A stretch of 64,000 nucleotides of DNA from an uncultured Verrucomicrobiota bacterium. Lineage in GTDB: Bacteria; Verrucomicrobiota; Kiritimatiellia; CAIQIC01; Lenti-01. The notes beneath the pieces were generated by a model that ran no database searches, was not told where the DNA came from, and worked only from the letters and a program-made list of their open reading frames with translations. Below, one piece after another: positions 2,244-50,158 of this stretch; the first letter of the stretch is position 1; every line of letters begins with the position of its first letter. Made by a program: the position numbers and the translations under genes. Location: the NCBI GenBank assembly GCA_964647595.1, contig CAZYGH010000015.1, positions 1 to 64,000 on the forward strand, written 5' to 3'.

Positions 2244-3752
<1,509 letters not shown>

Positions 3753-3867: not shown

Positions 3868-3942
3868 GTTTTCCACAGAATGGAAAAATGTTTCTCGTTT
3901 TTTCCACACAATGGAAAAAATGTTTCCACAGTGTGGAAAACT
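3868..3942. repeat. Copy 1 of a dispersed 75-bp triple-palindrome element (TTCCACAnnnTGGAA modules)
   Basis: Reads GTTTTCCACAGAATGGAAAAATG...TTTCCACACAATGGAAAAAATGTTTCCACAGTGTGGAAAAC. Near-identical copies occur at 18367-18440 and 47079-47151. Confidence 0.8.
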
Positions 3943-4028
3943 CGGATGGTGAAGTTTCTCGGCAAATGCCCCACTCCAACCTCGACGACGGTTGACACTC
4001 CCCTGCCACCTTTGACAGTCTGCCGACC

Positions 4029-5018
4029 ATGAAAACACGGTTCATGAGGATTCGTTTCTATTGTTTGTATTTCGCGGTCGGCCTTGTATGGATGGGGGGC
4101 GCAACGGCAAGCGGTCAAAACGTATCCTGCCTCGGACAACTGGTGCCGGGCGAACGCGTTCTCATCCTTTCCGCGCCGCCCGATTCCATCGTGGGAGAGT
4201 TGCACGTCAAACGTAGCGACCGGGTGGAGAAGGGTGACGTTCTGGCAGTCTTGCGCGACCAGCCCACTCAAGCCGCCAAGCTCGAACTGGCCCTGCAGAA
4301 ACTCGAATCGGCCCGCATCGAATTTCACCGCATCCAAGCCGGCGAGCGCCCGGAAGCCATCGCAGCTCAGGAGTCCTTGATCGCCGCCCATCGCGCCGAG
4401 GCCGATCTGGCCGAACTCCGCCGTGGCCGCTTCGCGCAACTGTTGAAGGAAGCCTATTTGGAGCAGGACCGCTATGACGGACAGGTGGCCGAATTGGCCG
4501 TCCTGCAGGCTCGCATCCGTCACGAGGAAAGTGTGCTTGAGGGAATGCAATCGGGACGGAAGGAAGATGTCGCCCAAGCCGATCTGGGAGTCAAAATGGC
4601 CGAGGCCGAGGTGGCGGCCGCCCGTTCGGATTTGGAATTGCAAACCCTCCGCGCGCCGTGTGCAGGGGAAATCGTCGAGGTCCACGCTTGGCCCGGCGAA
4701 AGCACGGGTGCAAATGGGGCACTGGTAAGTCTGGCCGAAACCGACCGCATGAGGGTGCTGGCCGAGGTGCACGAAAACGATTTGTCGCGGGTGACCATAG
4801 GACAGCGGGCGCGCATCCGCGGCGCGGCCCTCCCTTTTGAATTCGAAGGAACCGTGGTGGAAATTGAACACGTCTTCGCAGACAGCCGCATGTTTGCGCT
4901 CGTCCCCGAGGTCTATGTGGATCGCCGCATCATGATGGTTCGCATTCAGCCGGACGATCCGGCCAAACTGGCCCCCTATTGTCAGGCACACGTCACCATC
5001 CTGATGGAAGCCCCATGA
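4029..5018 (+). CDS. HlyD/DevB-family membrane fusion (periplasmic adaptor) protein of an ABC exporter
   Basis: 329 aa with an N-terminal TM/signal segment, coiled-coil middle and beta-barrel C-terminus. Its stop overlaps the downstream permease start (ATGA at 5015-5018). Confidence 0.7.
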   Translation: MKTRFMRIRFYCLYFAVGLVWMGGATASGQNVSCLGQLVPGERVLILSAPPDSIVGELHVKRSDRVEKGDVLAVLRDQPTQAAKLELALQKLESARIEFHRIQAGERPEAIAAQESLIAAHRAEADLAELRRGRFAQLLKEAYLEQDRYDGQVAELAVLQARIRHEESVLEGMQSGRKEDVAQADLGVKMAEAEVAAARSDLELQTLRAPCAGEIVEVHAWPGESTGANGALVSLAETDRMRVLAEVHENDLSRVTIGQRARIRGAALPFEFEGTVVEIEHVFADSRMFALVPEVYVDRRIMMVRIQPDDPAKLAPYCQAHVTILMEAP

Positions 5019-6199
5019 ATCCACTCGGCGGGCTAAGAGACTTCTGGATGCCCGGCGGTATTCCATTGGCGTGGAGGCAGCTCATGGGCGAGAAGAAGCG
5101 CTTCGCCGTGGCCGTCGTCGGCGTGGCGTTCGGAGTCGTGCTGATGCTCTTTCAATTGGGCATCTTCCGCGCCTTCATGCTCATGGTGGTCCGTCCCATC
5201 GCCACTTGGCGGGGCGAGCTGGTCATGGTCAGCCGCGATTTCCAGTACATCATCGCAACCGAACCCTTTCCCGAACGCCGCCTCGTTCAGGCACAGGCGT
5301 TGCCCGAGGTCGGCAAGGTGTATCCGCTACGGCTCCGCTTTGGCCAGTGGCGGCATCCAGACACCGGCCGCCAATGCGATATTGCCCTGTTCGGCATCCG
5401 CCCCGACGCCAATCCCTTCGTCCTACCGGAAATCGAGGCGCAACTCGGGATTCTTTCGCTGGCCGACGGTGCGCTTTACGACGAGCTTTCCACCGCCGAT
5501 TATGGCGATGTTGCCGCGCGACTCCACCAAGATGGCGTGCTCATCGGCGAAATGAACAAGCGCCGGATCCGAGTGCTGGGACTGTTTTCTCTTGGTGAAA
5601 CCTTGGCCGCCTACGGCAACGTGATCGTCGGCGCAGAAACCTTCCAGCGGATTCAGGAACGAAAAGCCGACCTGATCGAACTGGGCATGATCGAGTTGGT
5701 GCCGGGCGCCGATGCGGCGGCGGTAGCTGCCCGCCTCAAAGAGTTGTTGCCGAAAGATGTCGACATCCTGACACGCGCAGAGCTGATGAGCCGCGAGCAA
5801 GCCTATTGGCAAGCCAACACGCCGCTGGGGTTCATCGTGACGGCAGGCCTAGTCATCGCTCTCTTCGTGGGCGCCATCATCGTCTATCAGATCCTCTACA
5901 CCGACATCAATGAGCACCTCCGGGAATACGCCACCCTCAAGGCCATGGGCATGAGCGATTTCTTTTTCATTCAAATCCTGTTGCAGGAGGCCTGCATTCT
6001 GCCCGCCTTCGGCTTCATCCCGGGCCTCGCCCTATCCGCCGGGCTGTTCTGGCTGGCGGAAACGGCCGGCAATCTGCCCACCCGACTCAATGTTTCCGAT
6101 ACCGCTTGCATTGCCGGATTGACCGTGGCCATGTGTCTCGTGGCTGGCCTCTGCGCCACCCGCCGCCTGCGGGCGGCCGAACCAGCAGACATCTTTTAA
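5015..6199 (+). CDS. ABC transporter permease, FtsX/DevC family
   Basis: Four TM segments with a large periplasmic loop, and the C-terminal FtsX-type TM bundle (…LKAMGMSDFFFIQILLQEA…). The start is ambiguous between 4979 and 5015. Confidence 0.7.
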   Translation: MNPLGGLRDFWMPGGIPLAWRQLMGEKKRFAVAVVGVAFGVVLMLFQLGIFRAFMLMVVRPIATWRGELVMVSRDFQYIIATEPFPERRLVQAQALPEVGKVYPLRLRFGQWRHPDTGRQCDIALFGIRPDANPFVLPEIEAQLGILSLADGALYDELSTADYGDVAARLHQDGVLIGEMNKRRIRVLGLFSLGETLAAYGNVIVGAETFQRIQERKADLIELGMIELVPGADAAAVAARLKELLPKDVDILTRAELMSREQAYWQANTPLGFIVTAGLVIALFVGAIIVYQILYTDINEHLREYATLKAMGMSDFFFIQILLQEACILPAFGFIPGLALSAGLFWLAETAGNLPTRLNVSDTACIAGLTVAMCLVAGLCATRRLRAAEPADIF

Positions 6200-16345: not shown

Positions 16346-17226
16346 AAATTCTCGTCACCGGTGGATGGGGCCAGCTCGGCTGGGATTGCCGCGAAGTGTT
16401 CACCCCCAAGCACGAAGTACTCGCCCTCGACCTGCCCAATCTCGACATCACCGACGCCAACAGCGTCGACGGAGTCCTCAACCTCTGGAAGCCCGACGTC
16501 CTCGTCAACTGCGCCGCCTATACCGCCGTCGATCGCGCTGAAACCGATGTCGCCAAATCCTGGCACGTCAACCGGGATGGACCCGCTCTCCTTGCCTCGC
16601 GCGCCAAAGCCCACAACATTTTCCTCGTTCACGTGTCCACCGACTATGTCTTCGATGGCGTACGCCCCGTCCCCCAACCCTATCTTGAAACTGACACCCC
16701 AAATCCCTCCAGCGTCTACGGCAAAAGCAAGCTCGCCGGCGAACGTGAAATCCAAGAACACGATCCCCGCCACGCCATCCTGCGCACCGCATGGCTCTAC
16801 GGTTCCCACGGCTATAACTTCCTCAAAACCATTCTGCGCCGCGCCGTCAACGATCCCCAAAAAGGACTCCGCGTTGTGAGCGACCAGTACGGCACCCCCA
16901 CCTGGTCCCGCCGCCTCGCCAAACAAATCCTCGCCGTCGTCGAAGCCGACGCCGCCGGACTCTTCCACGCCTCCGGCGAAGGCTATTGCTCCTGGTTCGA
17001 CTTCGCCAAAGAATTCATTTCCGCCATGCAGCTCGACTGCGAAGTGCGCCCCTGCACCACCGCGGACTATCCCACCCCCACCGTCCGTCCCGCCAACTCC
17101 ATCCTCGAGAACGCCAACCTCAAGAAGGCCAACCTCAATCTCATGCAAGACTGGCGCGAAGACCTCCGCGAATACGCCTCACGCTACCGCGAAGCCCTCC
17201 TGCGCGAAGTAAAAACCCAGTCATGA
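16342..17226 (+). CDS. rfbD: dTDP-4-dehydrorhamnose reductase
   Basis: MKILVTGGWGQLG Rossmann N-terminus and the Y...K motif of the RmlD family. Its stop TGA overlaps the rfbB ATG at 17223-17226. Confidence 0.85.
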   Translation: MKILVTGGWGQLGWDCREVFTPKHEVLALDLPNLDITDANSVDGVLNLWKPDVLVNCAAYTAVDRAETDVAKSWHVNRDGPALLASRAKAHNIFLVHVSTDYVFDGVRPVPQPYLETDTPNPSSVYGKSKLAGEREIQEHDPRHAILRTAWLYGSHGYNFLKTILRRAVNDPQKGLRVVSDQYGTPTWSRRLAKQILAVVEADAAGLFHASGEGYCSWFDFAKEFISAMQLDCEVRPCTTADYPTPTVRPANSILENANLKKANLNLMQDWREDLREYASRYREALLREVKTQS

Positions 17227-18287
17227 GCCGCACCTTCCGCAACCTGCTGGTCACCGGCGGCGCCGGCTTCATCGGCGTCAACTTCATCCGCTGGCTCTTT
17301 GATCAACCCGACGGCCCCGCCCGCATCATCAACGTCGACAAGCTCACCTACGCCGGAAATCCCCTCTCGCTCCTGGATCTCACCGAGCGCGTCGGCAACC
17401 GCTATGTCTTCGTCAAGGCCGACATCTGCGATGCCCCCAAGATGAAGGACATCATCGAACAATTCGACATCGACTCCATCGCCCACTTCGCCGCCGAAAG
17501 CCACGTCGATCGCTCCATTGTCGCCCCCGACGAATTTGTCCGCACCAACATCCTCGGCACCTATACCCTCCTGCAAGCCGCCCGCGAACACGCCTCTCAA
17601 ATTCAAGTGTTTCACCACATTTCCACCGATGAAGTCTTTGGCTCCCTCGGCCCCACCGGCTTCTTCACCGAAGAAACCCCCTACTCCCCCAACTCCCCCT
17701 ACTCCGCCTCCAAGGCATCGAGCGATCACCTCGTCCGCGCCTACCACGAAACCTACAAACTCCCCACCACCCTCTCCAACTGCTCCAACAATTACGGCCC
17801 CTACCAATTTCCTGAAAAACTCATCCCCCTCATGATTCTCAACGCCATCGAAGGCAAACCCCTTCCCGTCTACGGCGACGGCATGAACATCCGCGACTGG
17901 CTCTTTGTCACCGACCACTGCTCTGCCATCTGGCGCATCATGCAGCAAGCCGCCTTCGGCACCACCTACAACGTCGGCGGCCGCAACGAACTCCCCAACC
18001 TCCGCGTCGTCGAAAAAATCTGCGACCTCGTCGACGCCAAAGCCCCCCCCCTCCCCAGCGGAAAACCCCGCCGATCCCTCATCACGTTTGTGAAAGACCG
18101 CCCCGGCCACGACCAACGCTACGCCATCGACTGCTCCAAGATCGAACGCGACCTCGGTTGGAAACCCGCCGAAACGTGGGCCACCGGCTTTGAACGCACT
18201 GTCAACTGGTACCTCGCCAACGCCCCTTGGTGTACCCAAGTCCGCTCCGGCGAGTACCAAAAGTGGATCGCCACCCACTACACCTGA
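17223..18287 (+). CDS. rfbB: dTDP-glucose 4,6-dehydratase
   Basis: MSRTFRNLLVTGGAGFIGVNF Rossmann motif and YSASKASSDHL catalytic motif. Confidence 0.9.
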   Translation: MSRTFRNLLVTGGAGFIGVNFIRWLFDQPDGPARIINVDKLTYAGNPLSLLDLTERVGNRYVFVKADICDAPKMKDIIEQFDIDSIAHFAAESHVDRSIVAPDEFVRTNILGTYTLLQAAREHASQIQVFHHISTDEVFGSLGPTGFFTEETPYSPNSPYSASKASSDHLVRAYHETYKLPTTLSNCSNNYGPYQFPEKLIPLMILNAIEGKPLPVYGDGMNIRDWLFVTDHCSAIWRIMQQAAFGTTYNVGGRNELPNLRVVEKICDLVDAKAPPLPSGKPRRSLITFVKDRPGHDQRYAIDCSKIERDLGWKPAETWATGFERTVNWYLANAPWCTQVRSGEYQKWIATHYT

Positions 18288-18366
18288 CCCGCCATCCCCT
18301 CCGCGTTTTCTCGCCCTACAGGCTCCCCCTTTCGACTATCACAGTTAATTAATTGTGATAGCTCGC

Positions 18367-18440
18367 GTTTTCCACACAATGGAAAACTTTTTTTCGATTT
18401 TTCCACACAATGGAAAGAATGTTTCCACACTGTGGAAAAC
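18367..18440. repeat. Copy 2 of the 75-bp triple-palindrome element
   Basis: GTTTTCCACACAATGGAAAAC...TTTCCACACAATGGAAAGAATGTTTCCACACTGTGGAAAAC followed by TTATTTTTT. It lies between the convergent rfbB and pseudopilin genes. Confidence 0.8.
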
Positions 18441-18457
18441 TTATTTTTTGAGCCCGA

Positions 18458-19096
18458 TTACGGCAGCGGGCGAACCGTAGACCACGTCACCCCATCGCGC
18501 ACTTTGTAGCGCGCCAAAACCCCCCGATCGCCCACCCGCGTGTACCACGTGGAAGCCGCCAGCGGCACCTGATCGAGCGAACCCTTTGGTGTGTCTGCTC
18601 TGGGCCCCACACTCCACACCACCCACGCCAACTGCGAATTCGGCGAATCGTCCGCCTTCCCCGTCGTGGCTTGGCACGACGGAAAATCGTCCGGCACCCA
18701 CACCGGATAGCGGTCGTCCTGCTTCGACCCGTTCATCCAGTAGTTTTCCGGTGCGGCATATTTATACGTGTTGCCCGAATGAAACGGATCTTCCAGTAGC
18801 GTCGAGGTTTTCGTGCGCGTGTTCTTTGGCAAATAGCCGCCATCTGCCAATTCCTGCGGCAGTTGCAACACTTCCCCTTGATCCGCCGCCATGCACGACA
18901 CCACCACCGGCGGATAGCACTGGTGGTCCGTGCGGTATGCCTCCAACGCCACTTCCACCGTCTGCAAATCGCCAACCACCCGCGCCACGCGCGCACGCTC
19001 GATCGACGCCAAGACAGGCGGCGCCGCCAGCGCGACCAACAAGGCCAACACCACCAGCACCACCAGCAACTCAATCAAGGTGAATGCGTTCTTCAA
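18458..19096 (-). CDS. Prepilin-type N-terminal cleavage/methylation domain protein (pseudopilin-like)
   Basis: N-terminus MKNAFTLIELLVVLVVLALL carries the class III signal peptide motif (FTLIEL). Confidence 0.75.
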   Translation of the reverse strand: MKNAFTLIELLVVLVVLALLVALAAPPVLASIERARVARVVGDLQTVEVALEAYRTDHQCYPPVVVSCMAADQGEVLQLPQELADGGYLPKNTRTKTSTLLEDPFHSGNTYKYAAPENYWMNGSKQDDRYPVWVPDDFPSCQATTGKADDSPNSQLAWVVWSVGPRADTPKGSLDQVPLAASTWYTRVGDRGVLARYKVRDGVTWSTVRPLP

Positions 19097-39831: not shown

Positions 39832-39953
39832 AACTACTGCATCGCTCCTTTTCCCACAATCTTTGAAAGTAGCAGGTTCCTCCCGCCATATGCAATCCTA
39901 TAGAAAAAGGGCGTGCATCCGGAATTCTTGGACCGCCCCGGTTCAACCTTCGG

Positions 39954-40053
39954 CTATATAAACAAGGTCGGCCCGCTTTCCTTGGCCCGTGCGATGAATG
40001 TCGCCACGCCCGCCACCTCGTCAACATCGATCAGCTCCTCGCGCGTGAGGCCC
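39954..40053 (-). pseudogene. Orphan 3' fragment (last ~33 codons plus 26 bp of downstream sequence) duplicating the end of the CoADR-rhodanese-TusA-DsrE gene at 47726
   Basis: 39929-40053 is near-identical to 47700-47825. It encodes …GLTREELIDVDEVAGVATFIARAKESGPTLFI* and is truncated 15 bp before the IS left inverted repeat. Confidence 0.65.
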
Positions 40054-40068
40054 AGCAGAGGGGGCAGA

Positions 40069-41163
40069 GGGGTCAGTCCCGTATTCTAGTAATCTTCGCC
40101 AGACGATCCCTCTGTTTTGCCAGATGAGGCTCCTCCGTTGTTTCAATTCTCTTGGGATATCGGCTCAGGCAGTCGGCTCTCCCCATATTCAAACGACAGG
40201 CAATCCAAGCGTTGGGTATGGAGGTGTGGCGACGAAGCAACCAGGCCAGCAAACATTTCTCGTCAGAGCTTTTTGCACCTGCAACAATCTCTCGTTCATC
40301 GATCTTCAAAACTTGCAGCCCCGCCTGTAAAAGCGCTTCCGCCTTTCGCTCGTCATGAAGATCCACTTCCTCCCCGGAATACGACGCTCGATTTTTCTCC
40401 CCCATCTGCACATCAATCAACTCGCCTAGCCTTTCCCGAAACTCTTCCGGCCCCAAAAACCAACCCCGCCGAATCTTCTTCCATTCCCTATCCGCCTCGC
40501 GGGGATTCTCGGCGTGGAGAATTTCAGCCACACGCTTCTGCATGAGCCGACCATAGGCTTTTCGCCCCGCGGTGTTGTCCGCTAACTGCCGAGCACCCAA
40601 CACACGCTCCAAAACAAGCCATGCCGGACGATTAGAGGAACGTGCGTAGGCCGGATAACTGCTCCACGGATAATCCAACAAATCGCCGATCTTCAGATCA
40701 AACAATCCAGCCCGAGCAGGGTTGAGATGGATATACGAAGCGACGGCTTCCAAATAACCATCATCATCCGTATGAACTGGCAACGCCTTGTATCTCCCTT
40801 GAAACAGATGCCCCCACCGCCGATGACGAGCATTATATCGCTGGGTATAGGTGCCTTGAAGCCACTTCATACCAACCACCAAATTCGGCTCCGGCGTTTC
40901 CAGCAAAACGTGATAATGATTGCCCATGAGAACATAAGAATGAATGCGCCAGCCGCACCGCTCGCAAACCTCATCCAGAGTATCCAGAAAGACCCGACGA
41001 TCCAGATCGTCCGCAAAAATCTCTTGCCCCCCGTTCCCGCGACACATCACGTGATAGACCGCCCCACAATATTCTACTCTTGGTTTTCTTGGCATCGTGT
41101 CCACACCCTCTCATAAGTCTCCATGCCATTCAATCACTATTACTAGAATACGGGACTGACCCC
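40069..41163. mobile_element. Insertion sequence with perfect 25-bp terminal inverted repeats carrying a single HUH (IS200/IS605-like Y1) transposase gene
   Basis: Left inverted repeat GGGGTCAGTCCCGTATTCTAGTAAT (40069-40093); right inverted repeat ATTACTAGAATACGGGACTGACCCC (41139-41163), exact reverse complements. No obvious target-site duplication. Confidence 0.8.
40073..41104 (-). CDS. Transposase, HUH/Y1 (IS200-like/RAYT-like) with extended C-terminal domain
   Basis: 343 aa with HUH motif GNHYHVLLE and catalytic Tyr region YIHLNPARAG; the C-terminal ~150 aa form a DnaA-C-like helical extension. Confidence 0.8.
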   Translation of the reverse strand: MDTMPRKPRVEYCGAVYHVMCRGNGGQEIFADDLDRRVFLDTLDEVCERCGWRIHSYVLMGNHYHVLLETPEPNLVVGMKWLQGTYTQRYNARHRRWGHLFQGRYKALPVHTDDDGYLEAVASYIHLNPARAGLFDLKIGDLLDYPWSSYPAYARSSNRPAWLVLERVLGARQLADNTAGRKAYGRLMQKRVAEILHAENPREADREWKKIRRGWFLGPEEFRERLGELIDVQMGEKNRASYSGEEVDLHDERKAEALLQAGLQVLKIDEREIVAGAKSSDEKCLLAWLLRRHTSIPNAWIACRLNMGRADCLSRYPKRIETTEEPHLAKQRDRLAKITRIRD

Positions 41164-41282
41164 TTTTCGTCGAATCGGATTCCGGCGACGCCATCATCTT
41201 CGGCACCAACCTCGTCTATTCCGGCTACTCCCTGTCCGCCTCAGCAAACACTGGAACTGCCGATATTATCATCGATCCCTAA
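41164..41282 (+). pseudogene. Stranded C-terminal fragment of a disrupted gene (adhesin/autotransporter-like repeat tail)
   Basis: A frame running out of the IS right inverted repeat reads …ESDSGDAIIFGTNLVYSGYSLSASANTGTADIIIDP* with no start codon or upstream body. Confidence 0.35.
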
Positions 41283-41339: not shown

Positions 41340-41750
41340 AATACTTTCAGCGATAGTTCCCCCCCCCCTCTCTCGCGGCCTTCCCCCCTTACACGTCGCG
41401 CTGTCGCGCCGCTACGCTGGACCCTCGCGGCGCGTGGGCGCCGCTCGGGGATAGCCGCCCCCGCTTCGGCCACGGCCACGCCGCTGACGCGGCTGGGCGC
41501 GGCCTGCGCAGGGGGCGGCTGTCCTCGCCGCTGGCGCGGCTGCGGGTGGAACTCGCTCGCGGTGCGCTCGCTCGCCTCTGCCTCGGGCTTTGCCCTCGGC
41601 ACCCACGCGGGCCTGTGCCCTTCGGGCAAAGCGGCCCGCGTGAAGATCGGCGGGGTTCTTCGCGGCGTTCTGCCGCGCTCTTCCGCCCTGCGGGCTTCGG
41701 GTGGGGGCGCGCGCGTCTTCTATCATTGTCCTGTGGCGCAGCCACATATC
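41340..41750. repeat. GC-rich noncoding repeat A (inverted relative to repeat B at 47240-47700)
   Basis: Shares reverse-complement words with B, for example GCCGCCCCCGCTTCGGCCACGG vs CCGTGGCCGAAGCGGGGGCGGC and CGCGCCGCTACGCTGG vs CAGCGTAGCGGCGCGG. Only Arg/Pro-rich junk ORFs are present. Confidence 0.6.
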
Positions 41751-42410: not shown

Positions 42411-43747
42411 TTAGAATTCAAGTGCGGCTTTCTTCTTTGCCTCTTCGGCTGCCTTTTCTTTTTCCTCTGCTACCCGGCTTGCTTCCTGTTGAGCCTGATC
42501 TACCTCGGCCTTGTAGGCAAGATAATGCCTTGTTAAGTTAAGATCGTACACTTCAAGGGATACTTGTCTTGACATTGCCTTTGCGCTTTCAAGTTTTTTA
42601 TCAAAGATATTTTCTGAGTAGGTCTCTTCAAATGTTCTGTTATAGTCATCGTATATCTTTCGAATCAAGTAGAAGCCCGGTATGGATTCATTACTGGTGT
42701 TCTCCACGGCTTTCTTTAACGCATCGTACGACTCAAAATCTGTCTGCCGATAAATTTCCATACAGATGCTTGGGTGGTTAAAGAATACTTTACGATATTC
42801 CTCAATATCCATTTTGGTTACCTGATAAGAATTGGAATTCCCGCTGATAAGCCTGACGAACACCGCGTCATTGGTAAGCACCAAGATATTTCGCGAATAT
42901 GTACATGTGTAGGGGGAAAGCTCAATGCTCTCCTTAACTATCTCATCACGGGCAACAATCTTGAAGCTCGCCTTGAACTTTTCTTTTGCACGCATTCCAA
43001 TATCCTTGACGCTTGTGCCTTCAGGGAAGGTCTGTGCAACACCCAAAAGCGCGCACGAACTCTTTGATTCACCATCACGCGCATCGCCCAAAAAGAAAAA
43101 TGAAAGAGCCTGGTAATTTGGGTCATTTGACACATACAATGACGGCAGTATTGAAACACCATCAATAAGCACCGTGTGCGCAGACATTTCTTCGTCTTCC
43201 TTTTCAATGACGAGCCGCTCGGGATCGGAATCCATATCCACCGTGTCCTCAGACATTTCTTCGTCTTCATTTTCTAAGTCAAGTCGCTCGGGATCGGAAT
43301 CCAGTTTGTAGAGTAAATATGCATAACTCGTCCCTGAATAAAATTCTTCTTTGTGGAGAGGAATGTGCTCAAGGTTTACCGAAAATGACGGATACTGGAT
43401 GGCATCTATAACACTGGCGATCTGTTCTGGAGTTGCGCCGTTCATCATGTAATCACCGATATACATATCAATGCCATCTGGTGACTCTTCTATTCTCTGC
43501 CTTACCGCTTCCCCCGATGAAGAAAGATTATGGGTCTTTCCAGCCTTTTTATCGGCAGATGATTTTTGGGCATCAAGCACCGCTGGAACAATCTGTTGAC
43601 CAATCCCTATAGCAACTCCAAGGGTGTCAGCCTTTCTCCACCCCGCCGACAAGGTAATAAGGCATAGAAACATAACAGTCTTAATGATTGCTGAATGCTT
43701 GAACGGGCTTTGTATCCATAAGGTATCGAAACGATTTTTTGTGCTCA
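42411..43747 (-). CDS. Hypothetical secreted/membrane-anchored protein with an acidic tandem repeat (AT-rich, likely horizontally acquired)
   Basis: Start taken at MSTKNRFD (ORF extends to 43874). Signal/anchor IIKTVMFLCLITLSAGW; tandem repeat DSDPERLDLENEDEEMSEDTV / DSDPERLVIEKEDEEMSAHTV; C-terminal coiled-coil KEKAAEEAKKKAALEF. Confidence 0.5.
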
Positions 43748-44185
43748 TACTTCTCTTTTTCTTTGAGGGTTCAGTTTCCAAAAATAATGGTCTGATTTTC
43801 GCGCCCGCGAAAAAAAAGTGGGCGCAACTTTTTTTCATGCCGCACCCTGGGCCACTACGCCCTGAAACGAACACAAACGAAAGTGCGCCCTATAGGCGCG
43901 TCTCTCGCAGTTCGCTCGTTTCAATGAATGTAGTGGATTCGGGTGCGACGAGTTCTGCAATAACGCAAAATCTAAAATGTCGAAAATCTATTGCTGGTCT
44001 GTTGCGTTCTCCTTGTCGGCAGGAGATGAATTCCTTACCGATGTGCCAAGAGTAGCAAAGAGGGGTCTGCTCGTCCAGCCTTGGGCAAGGGTAGAACTTG
44101 GCCAAAAATAACACTCGCCAAATCGAAGGGATCGCAAGAGACTATCCAGCGATTGGTTCATGCATCCGAAATTAAGGAGAAGCCA

Positions 44186-46451: not shown

Positions 46452-47042
46452 GTGCGCAACTTCTTTGCCATGTCAATCGCATGCGTCGTGCTGGCTTTCG
46501 GCCCCGGCGCAAGCGCGTTCCCGAGCATCGTATGGTCGGGAATACAGGACATCGACACCGGCTATTTGCCAATGGATTTGAATCAGGATTCCATCGTGGA
46601 TTTCCTGTACACATTCACTTTGATGGCGGAATTTTCCGTGACTTCCCAAGGCGCAAACAGGACCGGCGGTCCGTTGTCCGCAGGAACCGTGATCGATCAA
46701 TCGCTTTCGGATTATTGGCAAAGCGGTTCGCAGACAATGGCGCAATGGATAAGGCTGCTTGACGACAATACGGTGAGTTTCGGGCCATGGGCCGGAGTGG
46801 ACAACGGCTATATGGGTTTGGAATTCGAGGCCGCTGGGCAAACATACTATGGATGGGCGCGAATCACGGCGGATTATGACGACATTTATGTGGTCATCCA
46901 TGAATGGGCATACGAATCAACCCCAGGTCTCGGCATTGCCGCTGGGGCAACCGGGGTGATACCTGAACCAGCAACGGCCACGCTGATTTGCATTGGGGGA
47001 CTGGGCCTTGCCCTTTGGAAGAGGCGCAGGGTAATAATGTAA
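46452..47042 (+). CDS. PEP-CTERM sorting-domain protein
   Basis: Signal peptide plus C-terminal VIPEPATATLICIGGLGLALWKRRR (PEP motif, TM helix, Arg cluster). Confidence 0.8.
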   Translation: MRNFFAMSIACVVLAFGPGASAFPSIVWSGIQDIDTGYLPMDLNQDSIVDFLYTFTLMAEFSVTSQGANRTGGPLSAGTVIDQSLSDYWQSGSQTMAQWIRLLDDNTVSFGPWAGVDNGYMGLEFEAAGQTYYGWARITADYDDIYVVIHEWAYESTPGLGIAAGATGVIPEPATATLICIGGLGLALWKRRRVIM

Positions 47043-47078
47043 GCATGTCTTATAAATTCGGATCATGTCGCGGCGCAG

Positions 47079-47151
47079 GTTTCCACAGTATGGAAAACTT
47101 TTTCGCGATTTTTCCACACAATGGAAAGAATGTTTCCACAGTGTGGAAAAC
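47079..47151. repeat. Copy 3 of the 75-bp triple-palindrome element
   Basis: GTTTCCACAGTATGGAAAAC…TTTCCACACAATGGAAAGAATGTTTCCACAGTGTGGAAAAC followed by a T-rich run. Confidence 0.8.
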
Positions 47152-47239
47152 TTGGTTTTCAGGCTGTTCTCCGGGGTTTTCTCGCGCGTTCAGGCGAAAC
47201 GGGGGCGTTGCGTGCGCAGCGAGGATCTACTCAGGGGGC

Positions 47240-47700
47240 TGTTAAAACTTCCTAGAGGATTGAGAGACCATGCCGCGGAGCGCCGTCAGGCGCGACCCCA
47301 GTCCCGACGCGCCCCGCGCGGTCGGGACGGTGCCGGGCGCGGTCCAGAGTCCGCGCCTGGCAGGTAGGCCGCCGTGAAGCAAGTGGCCCCGAGTTTCACG
47401 CGTAGCGGGACACTCGGGGCGAGTTGCAGGCGGCCTTGCAGCGCCTTTAAAGGCGCGGACGGACAAGCGGCGTTGGAAATCCGCCGTCCTCGGCGGATTT
47501 GAACGACACGCGTAAGCGAAGGCGTAGCCTGAGCGCGGATCGGAGGCGGGGTTGGGCTCGCGGCGAGCTGCCGCGTACCGCATCTCCGTGCGCGCCCCAC
47601 CCGGAGCCCAGCCGTGGCCGAAGCGGGGGCGGCCAGCCACGAGCGGAGCGAGGGTCAGCGTAGCGGCGCGGCAGGAATCTAAAATGGTCGGCTCTTTTCA
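47240..47700. repeat. GC-rich noncoding repeat B (inverted partner of repeat A)
   Basis: 460 bp at roughly 75% GC without a credible ORF; shares an ~80-bp core with the reverse complement of 41400-41480. Confidence 0.6.
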
Positions 47701-47725
47701 TGGACCGCCCCGGTTCAACCTTCGG

Positions 47726-50158
47726 CTATATAAACAAGGTCGGCCCGCTTTCCTTGGCCCGCGCGATAAACGTCGCCACGCCCGCCACCTCGTCTACATC
47801 GATCAACTCCTCGCGCGTGAGGCCCATGACACCCATGGCCATATCGCAGGCAATAAACTTTACGCCCATCTGACGCGCGTTGCTCAGCATGTCGGGCAAC
47901 GACGTAATATTTTGGCTCGCCATCACATGCTTCATCATCTCCGTGCCCATTCCCGCCATATGCATCTTAGAAAGCGCCAATTTCGACGCGCCCTTCGGCA
48001 GCATGAAGCCGAACATCGTGTTCAGCAAACTCTTCTTCACCTGCGGCCCCGGGTTCTTCCTTAACACGCTCAAGCCCCAGAAGGTGAAGAAAATGCTGAC
48101 CTGCATCCCTGCTGCGGCCATGCCGGTAGCGAGGATGAGCGCCGCCAGTGCCTTATCCAGATCGTTGCTAAACAACACCATCGCACCGGAATTGCTGCTT
48201 CCAACCGTTGAGACAGACGGCACCGAGGTCCCCTTTCGAACAACGGCTTCGATGTAGGTATCTTTCCTCGTCAACTTGACAACCTTGTGACCACTGCTCT
48301 GCGCCCAATTGCTCAGGTCGGGAGCAAACCCCGATGCACCCAGCACTTTGATCGTGGCACCCGCCGGAAGTCCGTCCAATTCCTTCTTGATGCGCACCAC
48401 GGGACCGGGACATTGCAAGGGACGCACATCCACCACCGTCTTGGGCTCGTCATCCTCCGATGTGATCTGGGGTCCACCCTCGCTACCCGTGCAAGAAAGT
48501 GCAATCTGATCGTCGGAAGGCATCCACTTTTCAGGCTGAAATTGCTTCCACGTCAGATAGCCGCCCGTCAAGTTGGCCGCATCGTAGCCGAGTTGTTTCA
48601 AAATCCGTTCCGCCACATACCCGCGTAACCCCTGCTGGCAATACGCCACGATCAGCCGATCTTTGGGCAACTCGAATGCACGGGCTCTCAGTTGATGTAG
48701 CGGGATCGGAATGGCCCCTTTCATGACGCCTAACGCCACCTCCGCCGGTTCGCGAACATCCAGCAAAAGTGCGCCTTCGGGCAATGCATCCGCCTGAACA
48801 ATCTTGGAATCGCCATTCAACACATTGGTCGCAATCATGCCGGCCACGCTGATCGGGTCCTTCGCCGAACTGAAAGGCGGCGCATAGCAAAGCTCCATCT
48901 CCGCCAGTTGTCTCACATCCAGTCCCGCCCGCATCGTCACCGCCAACACGTCCGCCCGTTTGTCCGCGCCCTCGCTCCCGATGATCTGGCCACCGTAGAT
49001 TTTACCGTCCGCACCAAACATCAATTTGATGTGCAAGGCGGTCGCACCGGGATAATAGCCCGCATGAGAACCCGGATGCAGATAGACTTTCTGATACGCT
49101 TTCCCCATCGCTTTCAGCCGCGCCTCCGTGTGCCCGCAACTCGCCGCTGTCAGCCGCCCCACCTTCACCACCGATGCGCCATACGTTCCCGCATACCGAC
49201 TGTTGCGCCCCATGATATTGTCCGCCGCAATTCGCCCTTGCCGATTCGCCGGTCCCGCCAACGGCACCGCCGTGGGCTGCCCGAACACAGGGTCGATCAC
49301 CGACACCACATCCCCCACCGCAAAAATATCCGGATCCGCCGTGCGCATCTGGTCATCCGTGACGATATGTCCACGCGGCCCAATCTCCAGCCCAGCCGCC
49401 TTGGCCAGCCCCGAATTGGGCTTCACGCCCACACACAAGGCCGCCACATCCGCCGTCCACGAACGTCCATCCTTCACCGTCACACGGACTCCGCCGCCCT
49501 CCACGGAAGCAAACGCCGAAACCGACGCTCCCAATTCAACCACGATGCCCGATAGGCGCAACTCTTCCGCCAACAAGGAACTCATTTCCTCATCCATCGT
49601 CGGCAACAGTTGCTTGCCCATTTCCAACAACACCACCTCCAGCCCGCGATGCCGCAGACTCTCGGCCAATTCCATCCCCACAAATCCGCCGCCCACAACG
49701 ACCACCTTCTTCGCATCCGCATCCAGCTTCTTGGCAATGCGATCCATGTCCTCCAGCGTCCACAACGGCAACACTTCCGGCAAATCGATTCCCGGCAACG
49801 ATAGGTGCATCGGCGAGGACCCCGTGGCGATCACCAACTGGTCATAGCGCTCTTCACGAATGCTTCCATCTTGGCGATTCAATACACTCACCACCTTGCG
49901 TGTACGATCCATCCCCGTCACTTCATGATTCACCCGCACATCCACATTGAATCGGGCGCGAAAATTTTCGGGAGTCATCACCAGCAACCAGCTTCGTTCC
50001 GGAATGATCTTCCCCAAATGATAGGGCAGCCCGCAGTTCGCATACGAAATATGCGGACCCCGCTCAAACATCACAATTTCGGCCTTCTCATCCAACCGCC
50101 GCAACCGCGCCGCCGCACTGGCCCCTCCCGCTACACCACCAATAATGACTGTTTTCAT
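47726..50158 (-). CDS. Four-domain sulfur-trafficking oxidoreductase: CoA-disulfide reductase/NADH-persulfide-reductase-like (FAD/NAD) plus rhodanese plus TusA-like plus DsrE/DsrF-like
   Basis: 810 aa. N-terminus MKTVIIGGVAGGASAA with redox Cys SYANCGLPY; a rhodanese active-site region; TusA motif LQCPGPV; C-terminal DsrE-like domain ending …ARAKESGPTLFI. Confidence 0.8.
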   Translation of the reverse strand: MKTVIIGGVAGGASAAARLRRLDEKAEIVMFERGPHISYANCGLPYHLGKIIPERSWLLVMTPENFRARFNVDVRVNHEVTGMDRTRKVVSVLNRQDGSIREERYDQLVIATGSSPMHLSLPGIDLPEVLPLWTLEDMDRIAKKLDADAKKVVVVGGGFVGMELAESLRHRGLEVVLLEMGKQLLPTMDEEMSSLLAEELRLSGIVVELGASVSAFASVEGGGVRVTVKDGRSWTADVAALCVGVKPNSGLAKAAGLEIGPRGHIVTDDQMRTADPDIFAVGDVVSVIDPVFGQPTAVPLAGPANRQGRIAADNIMGRNSRYAGTYGASVVKVGRLTAASCGHTEARLKAMGKAYQKVYLHPGSHAGYYPGATALHIKLMFGADGKIYGGQIIGSEGADKRADVLAVTMRAGLDVRQLAEMELCYAPPFSSAKDPISVAGMIATNVLNGDSKIVQADALPEGALLLDVREPAEVALGVMKGAIPIPLHQLRARAFELPKDRLIVAYCQQGLRGYVAERILKQLGYDAANLTGGYLTWKQFQPEKWMPSDDQIALSCTGSEGGPQITSEDDEPKTVVDVRPLQCPGPVVRIKKELDGLPAGATIKVLGASGFAPDLSNWAQSSGHKVVKLTRKDTYIEAVVRKGTSVPSVSTVGSSNSGAMVLFSNDLDKALAALILATGMAAAGMQVSIFFTFWGLSVLRKNPGPQVKKSLLNTMFGFMLPKGASKLALSKMHMAGMGTEMMKHVMASQNITSLPDMLSNARQMGVKFIACDMAMGVMGLTREELIDVDEVAGVATFIARAKESGPTLFI

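Follow-up and report, generated by a model that had tools for sequence, protein, structure and literature searches.

Modular interspersed palindromic repeats of Kiritimatiellia, located between genes and also in frame within them

Three palindromic arrays in the window

The sequence under study, referred to as the window, is a stretch of 64,000 nucleotides of contig CAZYGH010000015.1 from an uncultured Verrucomicrobiota bacterium assigned to the Kiritimatiellia. It contains three near-identical elements of about 76 bp, all on the plus strand (Table 1). Each is composed of three 17-bp palindromic modules with offsets of exactly +31 and then +22 in all three copies. A preliminary description of the window, made from its sequence alone, had listed three near-identical palindromic elements of about 75 bp ending in a perfect palindrome. 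Both points were borne out: the third module is perfect in the window copies, while in each copy the right arm of modules 1 and 2 begins with A in place of G. The palindromy assigned to the modules also stands, but the formula is better written TTTTCCAC-N3-GTGGAAAA, and the centre 'caa' given for the first module has to be corrected, since copy 1 reads ...CACAgaaTGG and copy 3 ...CACAgtaTGG. Searching the window for TTTCCACA-N3-TGGAAA with up to two mismatches gave 19 strand-matches compared to 0.35 expected, a number reached in none of 100 shuffles. The looser pattern TTTCCA-N5-TGGAAA detected the nine array modules and two sites at chance level, but nothing else. The consensus of the modules is TTTCCA-Y-N3-R-TGGAAA.

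Table 1. Features of the window mentioned in the text
Feature	Position	Strand	Remarks
guaB	2244-3704	-	start 166 nt from array copy 1
Array copy 1	3868-3943	+	modules 3870-3886, 3901-3917, 3923-3939
HlyD-family fusion protein gene	4029-5018	+	start 89 nt from array copy 1
GDP-mannose-dehydratase-like gene	16986-18287	+	convergent partner at array copy 2
Accessory perfect palindrome CTATCACAGTTAATTAATTGTGATAG	18336-18361		26 bp, upstream of copy 2 at 6-7 nt from its first module
Array copy 2	18367-18442	+	modules 18369-18385, 18400-18416, 18422-18438
Pilin-like N_methyl gene	18458-19096	-	convergent partner at array copy 2
RAYT-like Y1 (HUH) transposase gene, 343 aa	40073-41104	-	Pfam Y1_Tnp 3e-11; NCBIfam REP_Tyr_transpos 56 bits (below the cutoff, 80)
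Small ORF	46452-47042	+	ends 36 nt before array copy 3
Array copy 3	47078-47153	+	modules 47080-47096, 47111-47127, 47133-47149

The gene context agrees with the positions described before. Copy 1 is located in the divergent promoter region of guaB (minus strand) and the HlyD-family gene (plus strand), and each of the other two copies is placed where the ends of two genes converge. Copy 3 is followed by a conserved GC-rich non-coding segment and then by the 3' end of an 810-aa CoA-disulfide-reductase-like gene on the minus strand. T-runs had been noted after copies 2 and 3; one is present after copy 2 (ACTTATTTTTT), but copy 3 continues with TTGGTTTTC. The sequence directly downstream of copy 2 is TTATTTTTT. 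The accessory 26-bp palindrome in front of copy 2 was absent from the earlier list. Accessory AT-centred palindromes also adjoin the arrays at loci L012, L021, L040, L077, L100, L042, L026, and L070; their arms differ between genomes, but palindromy is kept, and they constitute an optional module.

No tRNA or tmRNA genes were found in the window. Rfam searches gave no match at gathering thresholds across the window and none at E <= 1 for the region from 41.2 to 47.75 kb. Other assemblies harboring the proteins of the window represent the same strain and contain the same arrays, and the window is also matched by a JGI metagenome contig.

Surroundings of the third copy

Copy 3 is part of a segment of about 7.6 kb bracketed by 130-nt direct repeats (39925-40054 and 47697-47826), which are 95% identical and duplicate the 3' end of the CoA-disulfide-reductase-like gene. 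The segment deviates in GC content (0.44 at 42-44 kb) and GC skew and is a candidate for an inserted segment; no integrase was seen in it. Besides the array, it harbors the RAYT-like gene, a Zn-ribbon ORF, a 487-aa ORF, an S8 peptidase, and a small ORF, whose product has a PEP-CTERM-looking tail by eye and no Pfam match. The 487-aa ORF (42411-43874, minus strand), also without Pfam match, contains two tandem 69-nt copies of 84% identity (43161-43298). Plus-strand GC skew is unusually strong, about -0.2 to -0.39 over nearly all of the 64 kb, and changes sign only at 1-2 kb and about 44-48 kb.

The GC-rich segment downstream of copy 3 (47172-47609, about 440 nt) is 92-94% identical to positions 5601-6121 of locus L089 from a different MAG species, and there it also abuts an array, which has eight modules. 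A partial inverted copy is located at 41363-41715. The sole ORF of the segment is of low complexity, and Rfam yielded no match for it with the threshold relaxed to E <= 1. The segment may represent a further repeat or possibly a structured RNA.

The RAYT-like gene is bracketed (40068-41164) by perfect 26-nt inverted repeats, AGGGGTCAGTCCCGTATTCTAGTAAT. Members of its family are numerous in Kiritimatiellales/Pontiella and often occupy contigs of about 1.1-1.5 kb, and in Verrucomicrobia bacterium S94 a very similar repeat, present in tandem copies, borders a homologue. Judged from these arrangements, the gene and its 26-nt repeat look like a REPtron of their own. A C-terminal HTH resembling DnaA domain IV, which had been considered for the RAYT-like protein, was unsupported by Pfam.

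Occurrence of arrays in other genomes

One genome per species was scanned with modules 2 and 3 as the query, which builds the 22-bp step into the search pattern. Arrays were detected at no fewer than 108 loci in at least 22 species-level assemblies, and the listed matches all derive from Verrucomicrobiota, Kiritimatiellia or 'Lentisphaerae' MAGs. In total, at least 117 arrays with at least 395 modules are present in these assemblies, about 90% of them not inside genes, and one incomplete MAG alone contains at least 22. The elements belong to a real family of repeats, palindromic, modular, and interspersed, and are not confined to the three sites of the window.

No array match was obtained in viral contigs, plasmid records or phage records. 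Arrays were also not found around guaB of 80 metagenomic relatives (up to about 6 kb each, identity at most 76%), but these loci say little, because none of them is from a close relative. The 21 kb of strain S94 contained no array either. In the literature search, the 17-mers appeared in no paper, and repeats of Kiritimatiellia were not reported. The palindromic array family has apparently been undescribed so far.

Array anatomy and sequence conservation

Among the listed matches, arrays consist of two to nine modules. Start-to-start steps in these matches are 22 bp (136 cases, set by the search pattern), 31 bp (97), and 30 bp (19), and rarer steps of 40-43, 50-52, and 61-64 bp occur with none in between. 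Several of the longer steps represent a normal step plus an inserted 20-nt GC hairpin. Two types of units can be distinguished. The first, of 22 bp, consists of the perfect palindrome TTTTCCAC-N3-GTGGAAAA and a 5-nt linker. The second, of 31 bp, consists of the variant TTTTCCAC(A/G)C(A/T)ATGGAAAA, which may also be written TTTCCAC(A/G)C(A/T)ATGGAAA, and a semi-conserved 14-nt spacer, aCTTTTTCGCGATT. The three-unit form of the window with the ends GTTTTCCACA...TGTGGAAAAC is the commonest longer form and recurs in many species. Array boundaries are sharp, (a)GT-TTTCCAC ... GTGGAAA-ACTT, and the flanks are without information. The six outer arm positions correspond to the consensus in 94-98% of 403 modules from the listed matches, in which the centre pair is C..G in 211, C..A in 100, T..G in 84, and T..A in 8 cases.

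Variant modules that keep palindromy were observed at two loci. At L022 (5172-5188), TTTACGTA-C-TACGTAAA is found in 31-bp register beside an array, and at L036 (2723-2739), TTTCTACGCAATAGAAA shows a compensatory C-to-T / G-to-A change. Other sequences are associated with arrays as well. In assembly CAZMOR01 (L037, L048, L049, L050, L055), arrays are flanked by the inverted pair CCCCATGCGGGGAATCGCGGCTCA / TGAGCCGCGATTCCCCGCATGGGG, and in several other species (L008, L017, L035, L036, L065, L086) a segment of about 100 nt ending ...GGCTCGGCACTCGGCTAT is located between or beside arrays. From these nested segments, the intergenic repeats are seen to be nested mosaics.

Placement relative to genes and transcription

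Genes around the 117 listed arrays were predicted by a simple GC3-based gene caller, which reproduced the JGI calls on L109. Forty-two arrays are intergenic between tandem genes, 25 between convergent and seven between divergent genes, 24 were scored as 'inside', and 19 were unclassifiable. Many of the 24 'inside' arrays are artefacts, because ORFs can run through stop-free arrays. The ratio of 25 convergent to 7 divergent positions is a real bias toward gene 3' ends. Mapping against gene starts and ends thus reveals a positional pattern, and the proposal of a REP-like family in the preliminary description holds for a dispersed, multi-copy palindromic repeat present in at least 22 species.

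The same bias would be expected if the elements were intrinsic, partly bidirectional terminators or mRNA-stabilising 3' hairpins that had spread as a family. Copy 2 gave three terminator-like calls, each a hairpin with a T-rich tail, both strands of the elements fold clearly below shuffled controls (z -3.4 to -7.5), and many copies end in ACTTTT(TT). Terminator-likeness among the window copies is, however, limited to copy 2, and the stems contain only three G-C pairs. Sequence information is zero right after ...GTGGAAAACTT, that is after ACTT, and therefore the T-run is not part of the element; it is not conserved. The orientation of arrays relative to transcription is unbiased in tandem pairs (15 vs 14 among the listed matches), the array of L030 stops 20 nt short of the start codon of pheS, and others are situated in frame in intact dihydroorotase, TilS, TatD, and permease genes. 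A terminator family as the general role, which had been considered initially, is very unlikely on these grounds.

The second role considered initially was a triple operator, and the arrays could accordingly be operators for a transcription factor controlling a regulon that includes guaB. The 17-bp palindromic modules at helical-turn spacing, the position of copy 1 in a divergent promoter region, and the arrays upstream of pheS in four species, where they occupy the same place and comprise four to eight modules where counted, are in line with such a function. Against it, divergent positions on the promoter side are the least frequent, with 7 of the 74 intergenic arrays that were classified among the listed matches, and the number of modules varies from two to nine. 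The 108 genes nearest to arrays belong to 135 unrelated Pfam families of diverse housekeeping functions without enrichment, guaB homologues of at most 76% identity are array-free, and copies are also present in coding regions. In addition, the spacers between sites are conserved and repeat-like, unlike those of independent operators. Operators of a regulon are highly improbable, but the associated idea of a dimeric DNA-binding protein acting at the half-sites is still plausible.

All-against-all clustering of ORFs up to 2.5 kb from arrays yielded only orthologous housekeeping sets. Neither this clustering nor the Pfam assignments of the 108 nearest genes revealed an enrichment of transposases, integrases or HTH proteins near arrays, and no transposase is among the 108 genes. 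A weak correlation was detected between array orientation and GC skew (p = 0.004), which could be caused by replication-linked insertion or by the same C-to-T bias that is behind the skew.

Arrays in frame within genes

About nine of the 117 listed arrays (about 8%) have coding signal to either side that continues in the same frame. Individual checks covered five gene families carrying in-frame arrays: an amidohydrolase of the dihydroorotase type from three species (L004, L033, L047), in which one Amidohydro_1 match spans the insert; TilS (L022), with the array between the PP-loop and TilS_C domains; TatD (L078), with a single domain match (11-271) across the insert; an OppB-like permease (L091), with the array in a loop; and a YfhO-like membrane protein in two species (L015, L071). 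In four of the five families, Pfam domains either run through the insert without a break or are recognised to its left and right. The assignment of the YfhO-like protein is based on a weak match below cutoff and on in-frame conservation in two species only.

In the dihydroorotases, the loop between HAEDE.F and HH.RRP comprises 7-9 residues in homologues of other phyla, and the dihydroorotases of this lineage (about 60-94% identity) carry an array-encoded peptide in it. Loop length varies across 18 aligned homologues, and the series extends from a 'VENS' remnant (419 aa) to two, four, and about seven modules (431-506 aa), all in frame. Array peptides are read in different frames in different dihydroorotases. 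In the three species, the inserts have 54, 54, and 105 nt, all multiples of three. All eight modules are perfect at their half-sites, with flanking third codon positions only 0.51-0.72 identical. From these data, the array is old in this gene and changes size by units. Perfect half-sites amid diverged third positions, a conservation above the neutral level, are held by something other than protein-level selection. Possible causes are a protein that recognises the half-sites and homogenisation by copies elsewhere. In three dihydroorotase homologues (P0164, P0165, P0187), the array-derived loop contains, in frame, a further repeat that is GC-rich and encodes GRHGGRPSMEGRAPSRPD. A GC-rich palindromic stretch that flanks the array of L045 (1958-2000) is possibly related to it.

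Stop trinucleotides are nearly absent from arrays. On both strands, 82 are present in 9206 nt of arrays compared to 1187±22 in composition shuffles, and 78 of 127 arrays among the listed matches have no stop in six frames. In the spacers, TA occurs at 0.09 of expectation and TG is low; against a first-order Markov control, spacer stops number 41 vs 65±9. The depletion in spacers is mostly a result of the near-absence of TA. Avoidance of stop codons as a design was rejected for this reason; under the Markov control it is mostly avoidance of TA, an observation which is no proof of selection. Because stop codons are nearly absent, arrays are tolerated in ORFs.

The unit might alternatively be primarily a coding repeat. 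Palindromic amphipathic repeat coding elements (PARCELs) are repeats of this kind, and intergenic copies would then represent decayed genes. Six frames nearly free of stops, the peptides FHTVEK, FPQCGK, and STVWK recurring in real proteins, and arrays that supply an ATG or GVG-type start and a Lys-rich N-terminus before a signal peptide (L023, L082) would be compatible with this view. The steps of 22 and 31 are, however, both 1 mod 3, so that consecutive units shift the frame and no single peptide repeat results, and it is the DNA palindrome that is conserved, not the peptide. Arrays with same-frame coding signal on both sides are also few, as described above, and a search of a protein database with array peptides found just four small hypothetical proteins, probably due to a word-index limit. 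A coding repeat is hardly credible as the origin of the family.

At several loci (L023 3090-3242, L082 3884-4015, L099, L086, L103), the last module is often followed immediately by an N-terminus resembling a signal peptide, for which the module can provide the start codon and Lys, as in ...fsMVWKT-VAVLAWLAGAGARA and in stVWKI-LPLAASLALVGC with a lipobox. Array-supplied starts could be obtained simply by chance, because ORFs run through arrays.

Half-sites as possible protein binding sites

The half-sites resemble DnaA boxes, for which the consensus is TTWTNCACA. Each module consists of two convergent DnaA-box-like 9-mers, and each window copy contains three exact TTTTCCACA 9-mers and one GTTTCCACA, which has one mismatch to the consensus. 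TTTTCCACA fits this consensus, which may not be the lineage's own box; neither dnaA, dnaN nor oriC lies in the loci analysed. Origins of cyanobacteria use TTTTCCACA as their box (PMC4674748). Among the listed matches, TTWTNCACA is matched by one half or both in 317 of 395 modules (80%), with both halves matching in 94. Within 22-bp pairs, half-sites follow each other every 11 bp in alternating orientation, and the other spacings are near multiples of about 10 bp, as for binding on one face of the helix. Arrays might accordingly be binding platforms kept by selection for a conserved host protein, either DnaA, for titration or as a reservoir, or a nucleoid-organising protein. This is the main rival to the interpretation given below and, from the sequence features available, possible but doubtful.

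A function for the host would be supported by several observations. Particular bases are conserved in at least 22 species beyond mere complementarity, and in the dihydroorotase gene the half-sites have remained perfect amid diverging third codon positions. The weak correlation of orientation with GC skew points in the same direction. The long persistence of arrays in several species at orthologous sites (dihydroorotase, YfhO-like, upstream of pheS) is as compatible with a host function as with a selfish element. Several observations speak against DnaA. Among the listed matches, 20% of the modules are without a consensus box, and the variable positions, C/T at position 7 and A/G at position 8, are in the CACA end which DnaA needs. 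Several of the 41/51-bp spacings result from an inserted 20-nt GC hairpin and not from phasing. DnaA is universal, yet the array family was not found in the sampled relatives (short guaB flanks and 21 kb of S94). The DnaA-box clusters datA, DARS, and the DBCs of B. subtilis are similar in that 9-mers are spaced by whole helical turns. The arrays differ from them in being many, with at least 22 in one MAG, dispersed and near-identical, with conserved spacers, and in occurring also in frame within coding regions. Dispersed, multi-copy, and partly intragenic arrays argue against a DnaA cluster.

A more far-reaching version, which we regard as rather unlikely, is that arrays are lineage-specific platforms selected at the DNA level, also within coding regions, bound by DnaA or by a dimeric nucleoid protein recognising TTTTCCA one turn apart, and not merely selfish. 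If so, they would serve a chromosome-wide process as sites of titration or organisation that are mobile and can expand, and new protein loops, start codons, and N-termini of signal peptides would be by-products.

Relationship to known repeats

The arrays were compared with several types of known repeats. As in the REP/BIME elements of Enterobacteria and Pseudomonas, short palindromic units are highly repeated, mostly extragenic, and conserved across related species; they form mosaic arrays with few fixed linker types, which favor gene 3' ends and operon-internal spacers. Array units differ from REPs in being shorter (17-19 bp), self-palindromic, strictly spaced by 22/31 bp, and in some cases translated in frame. 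A GTAG/GTGG-type head beside the REP palindrome is the cleavage site of RAYTs. The arrays have no such head, since the flank (a)GT-TTTCCAC...GTGGAAA-ACTT merely extends the palindrome. A link to a REPtron, as known for REPs, is not apparent, and no Y1 gene was found beside any array among the listed matches. The RAYT-like gene of the window, flanked by GGGGTCAGTCCCGTATTCTAGTAAT, was rejected as the partner of the arrays, because it has its own, different 26-nt inverted repeat and the same pairing exists in S94 without arrays.

With MITEs, pneumococcal BOX, Neisseria Correia, and mycobacterial MIRU elements, the arrays share a small size (about 76 bp for the window element), multiple copies, sharp boundaries, and inverted ends of 10 nt (GTTTTCCACA / TGTGGAAAAC). 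They are also AT-rich relative to the genome and have other repeats nested inside or beside them, and their modular build with variable unit number is similar to BOX and MIRU. Unlike MITEs, they are not associated with a target-site duplication: the longest string shared by an array's own flanks averages 3.64 nt compared to 3.92±0.18 for mismatched flanks (n = 28). In about 860 kb of array-bearing loci, no parent IS or transposase with the same ends was seen, and an autonomous copy is not known.

To our knowledge, a change of repeat number in frame within a single enzyme loop has not been described for Rickettsia palindromic elements (RPEs), the third type of element considered. RPEs occupy intergenic sites and are also inserted in frame into unrelated housekeeping genes (MITE review PMC10969869). 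Both kinds of repeat add peptide to a tolerated loop of an intact gene. There is no sequence relationship, however, and RPEs are single elements of about 100-150 bp from obligate intracellular alpha-proteobacteria, whereas the present arrays consist of tandem 22/31-bp units in environmental Kiritimatiellia with unit number changing in frame within one gene. By analogy, the arrays appear most like REP/BIME and MITEs in architecture and placement and like RPEs in their in-frame life within genes. Because neither a GTAG head nor a cognate RAYT nor a target-site duplication was found, they fall outside the REPtron and MITE families, and they should be regarded as a new family of the REP/MITE general kind.

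Interpretation

We favor, with a probability of roughly 0.6, the explanation that the arrays are a non-autonomous repeat, which spreads and changes its unit number, is kept uniform by recognition of the half-sites or by homogenisation, and is tolerated because it is poor in stop codons. New sites would be reached by the arrays, and their length would change through the gain or loss of entire units. Their uniformity would be maintained by a trans-acting protein reading the TTTTCCA half-sites, either a transposase/recombinase or a host DNA-binding protein, or alternatively by homogenisation among copies. With few stop codons in six frames, they would be tolerated almost anywhere, in intergenic DNA as well as in surface loops of proteins. 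The effect on the host would be mostly neutral. Local side effects are possible, for example hairpins in the RNA at 3' ends or, as at copy 2, weak termination in some cases, but would not be the reason for the existence of the family.

For genome analysis, the arrays have practical consequences. They break MAG assemblies, and some contigs end inside arrays. Spurious ORFs run through them, and gene calling in this lineage can be misled. The conservation of half-sites across at least 22 species points to a sequence-specific protein. Rickettsia RPEs are the textbook case of repeats that are both intergenic and in frame within genes. If the non-autonomous repeat proposed here is real, the arrays would be a free-living example from the PVC group of a palindromic repeat located both between genes and in frame in essential enzymes.
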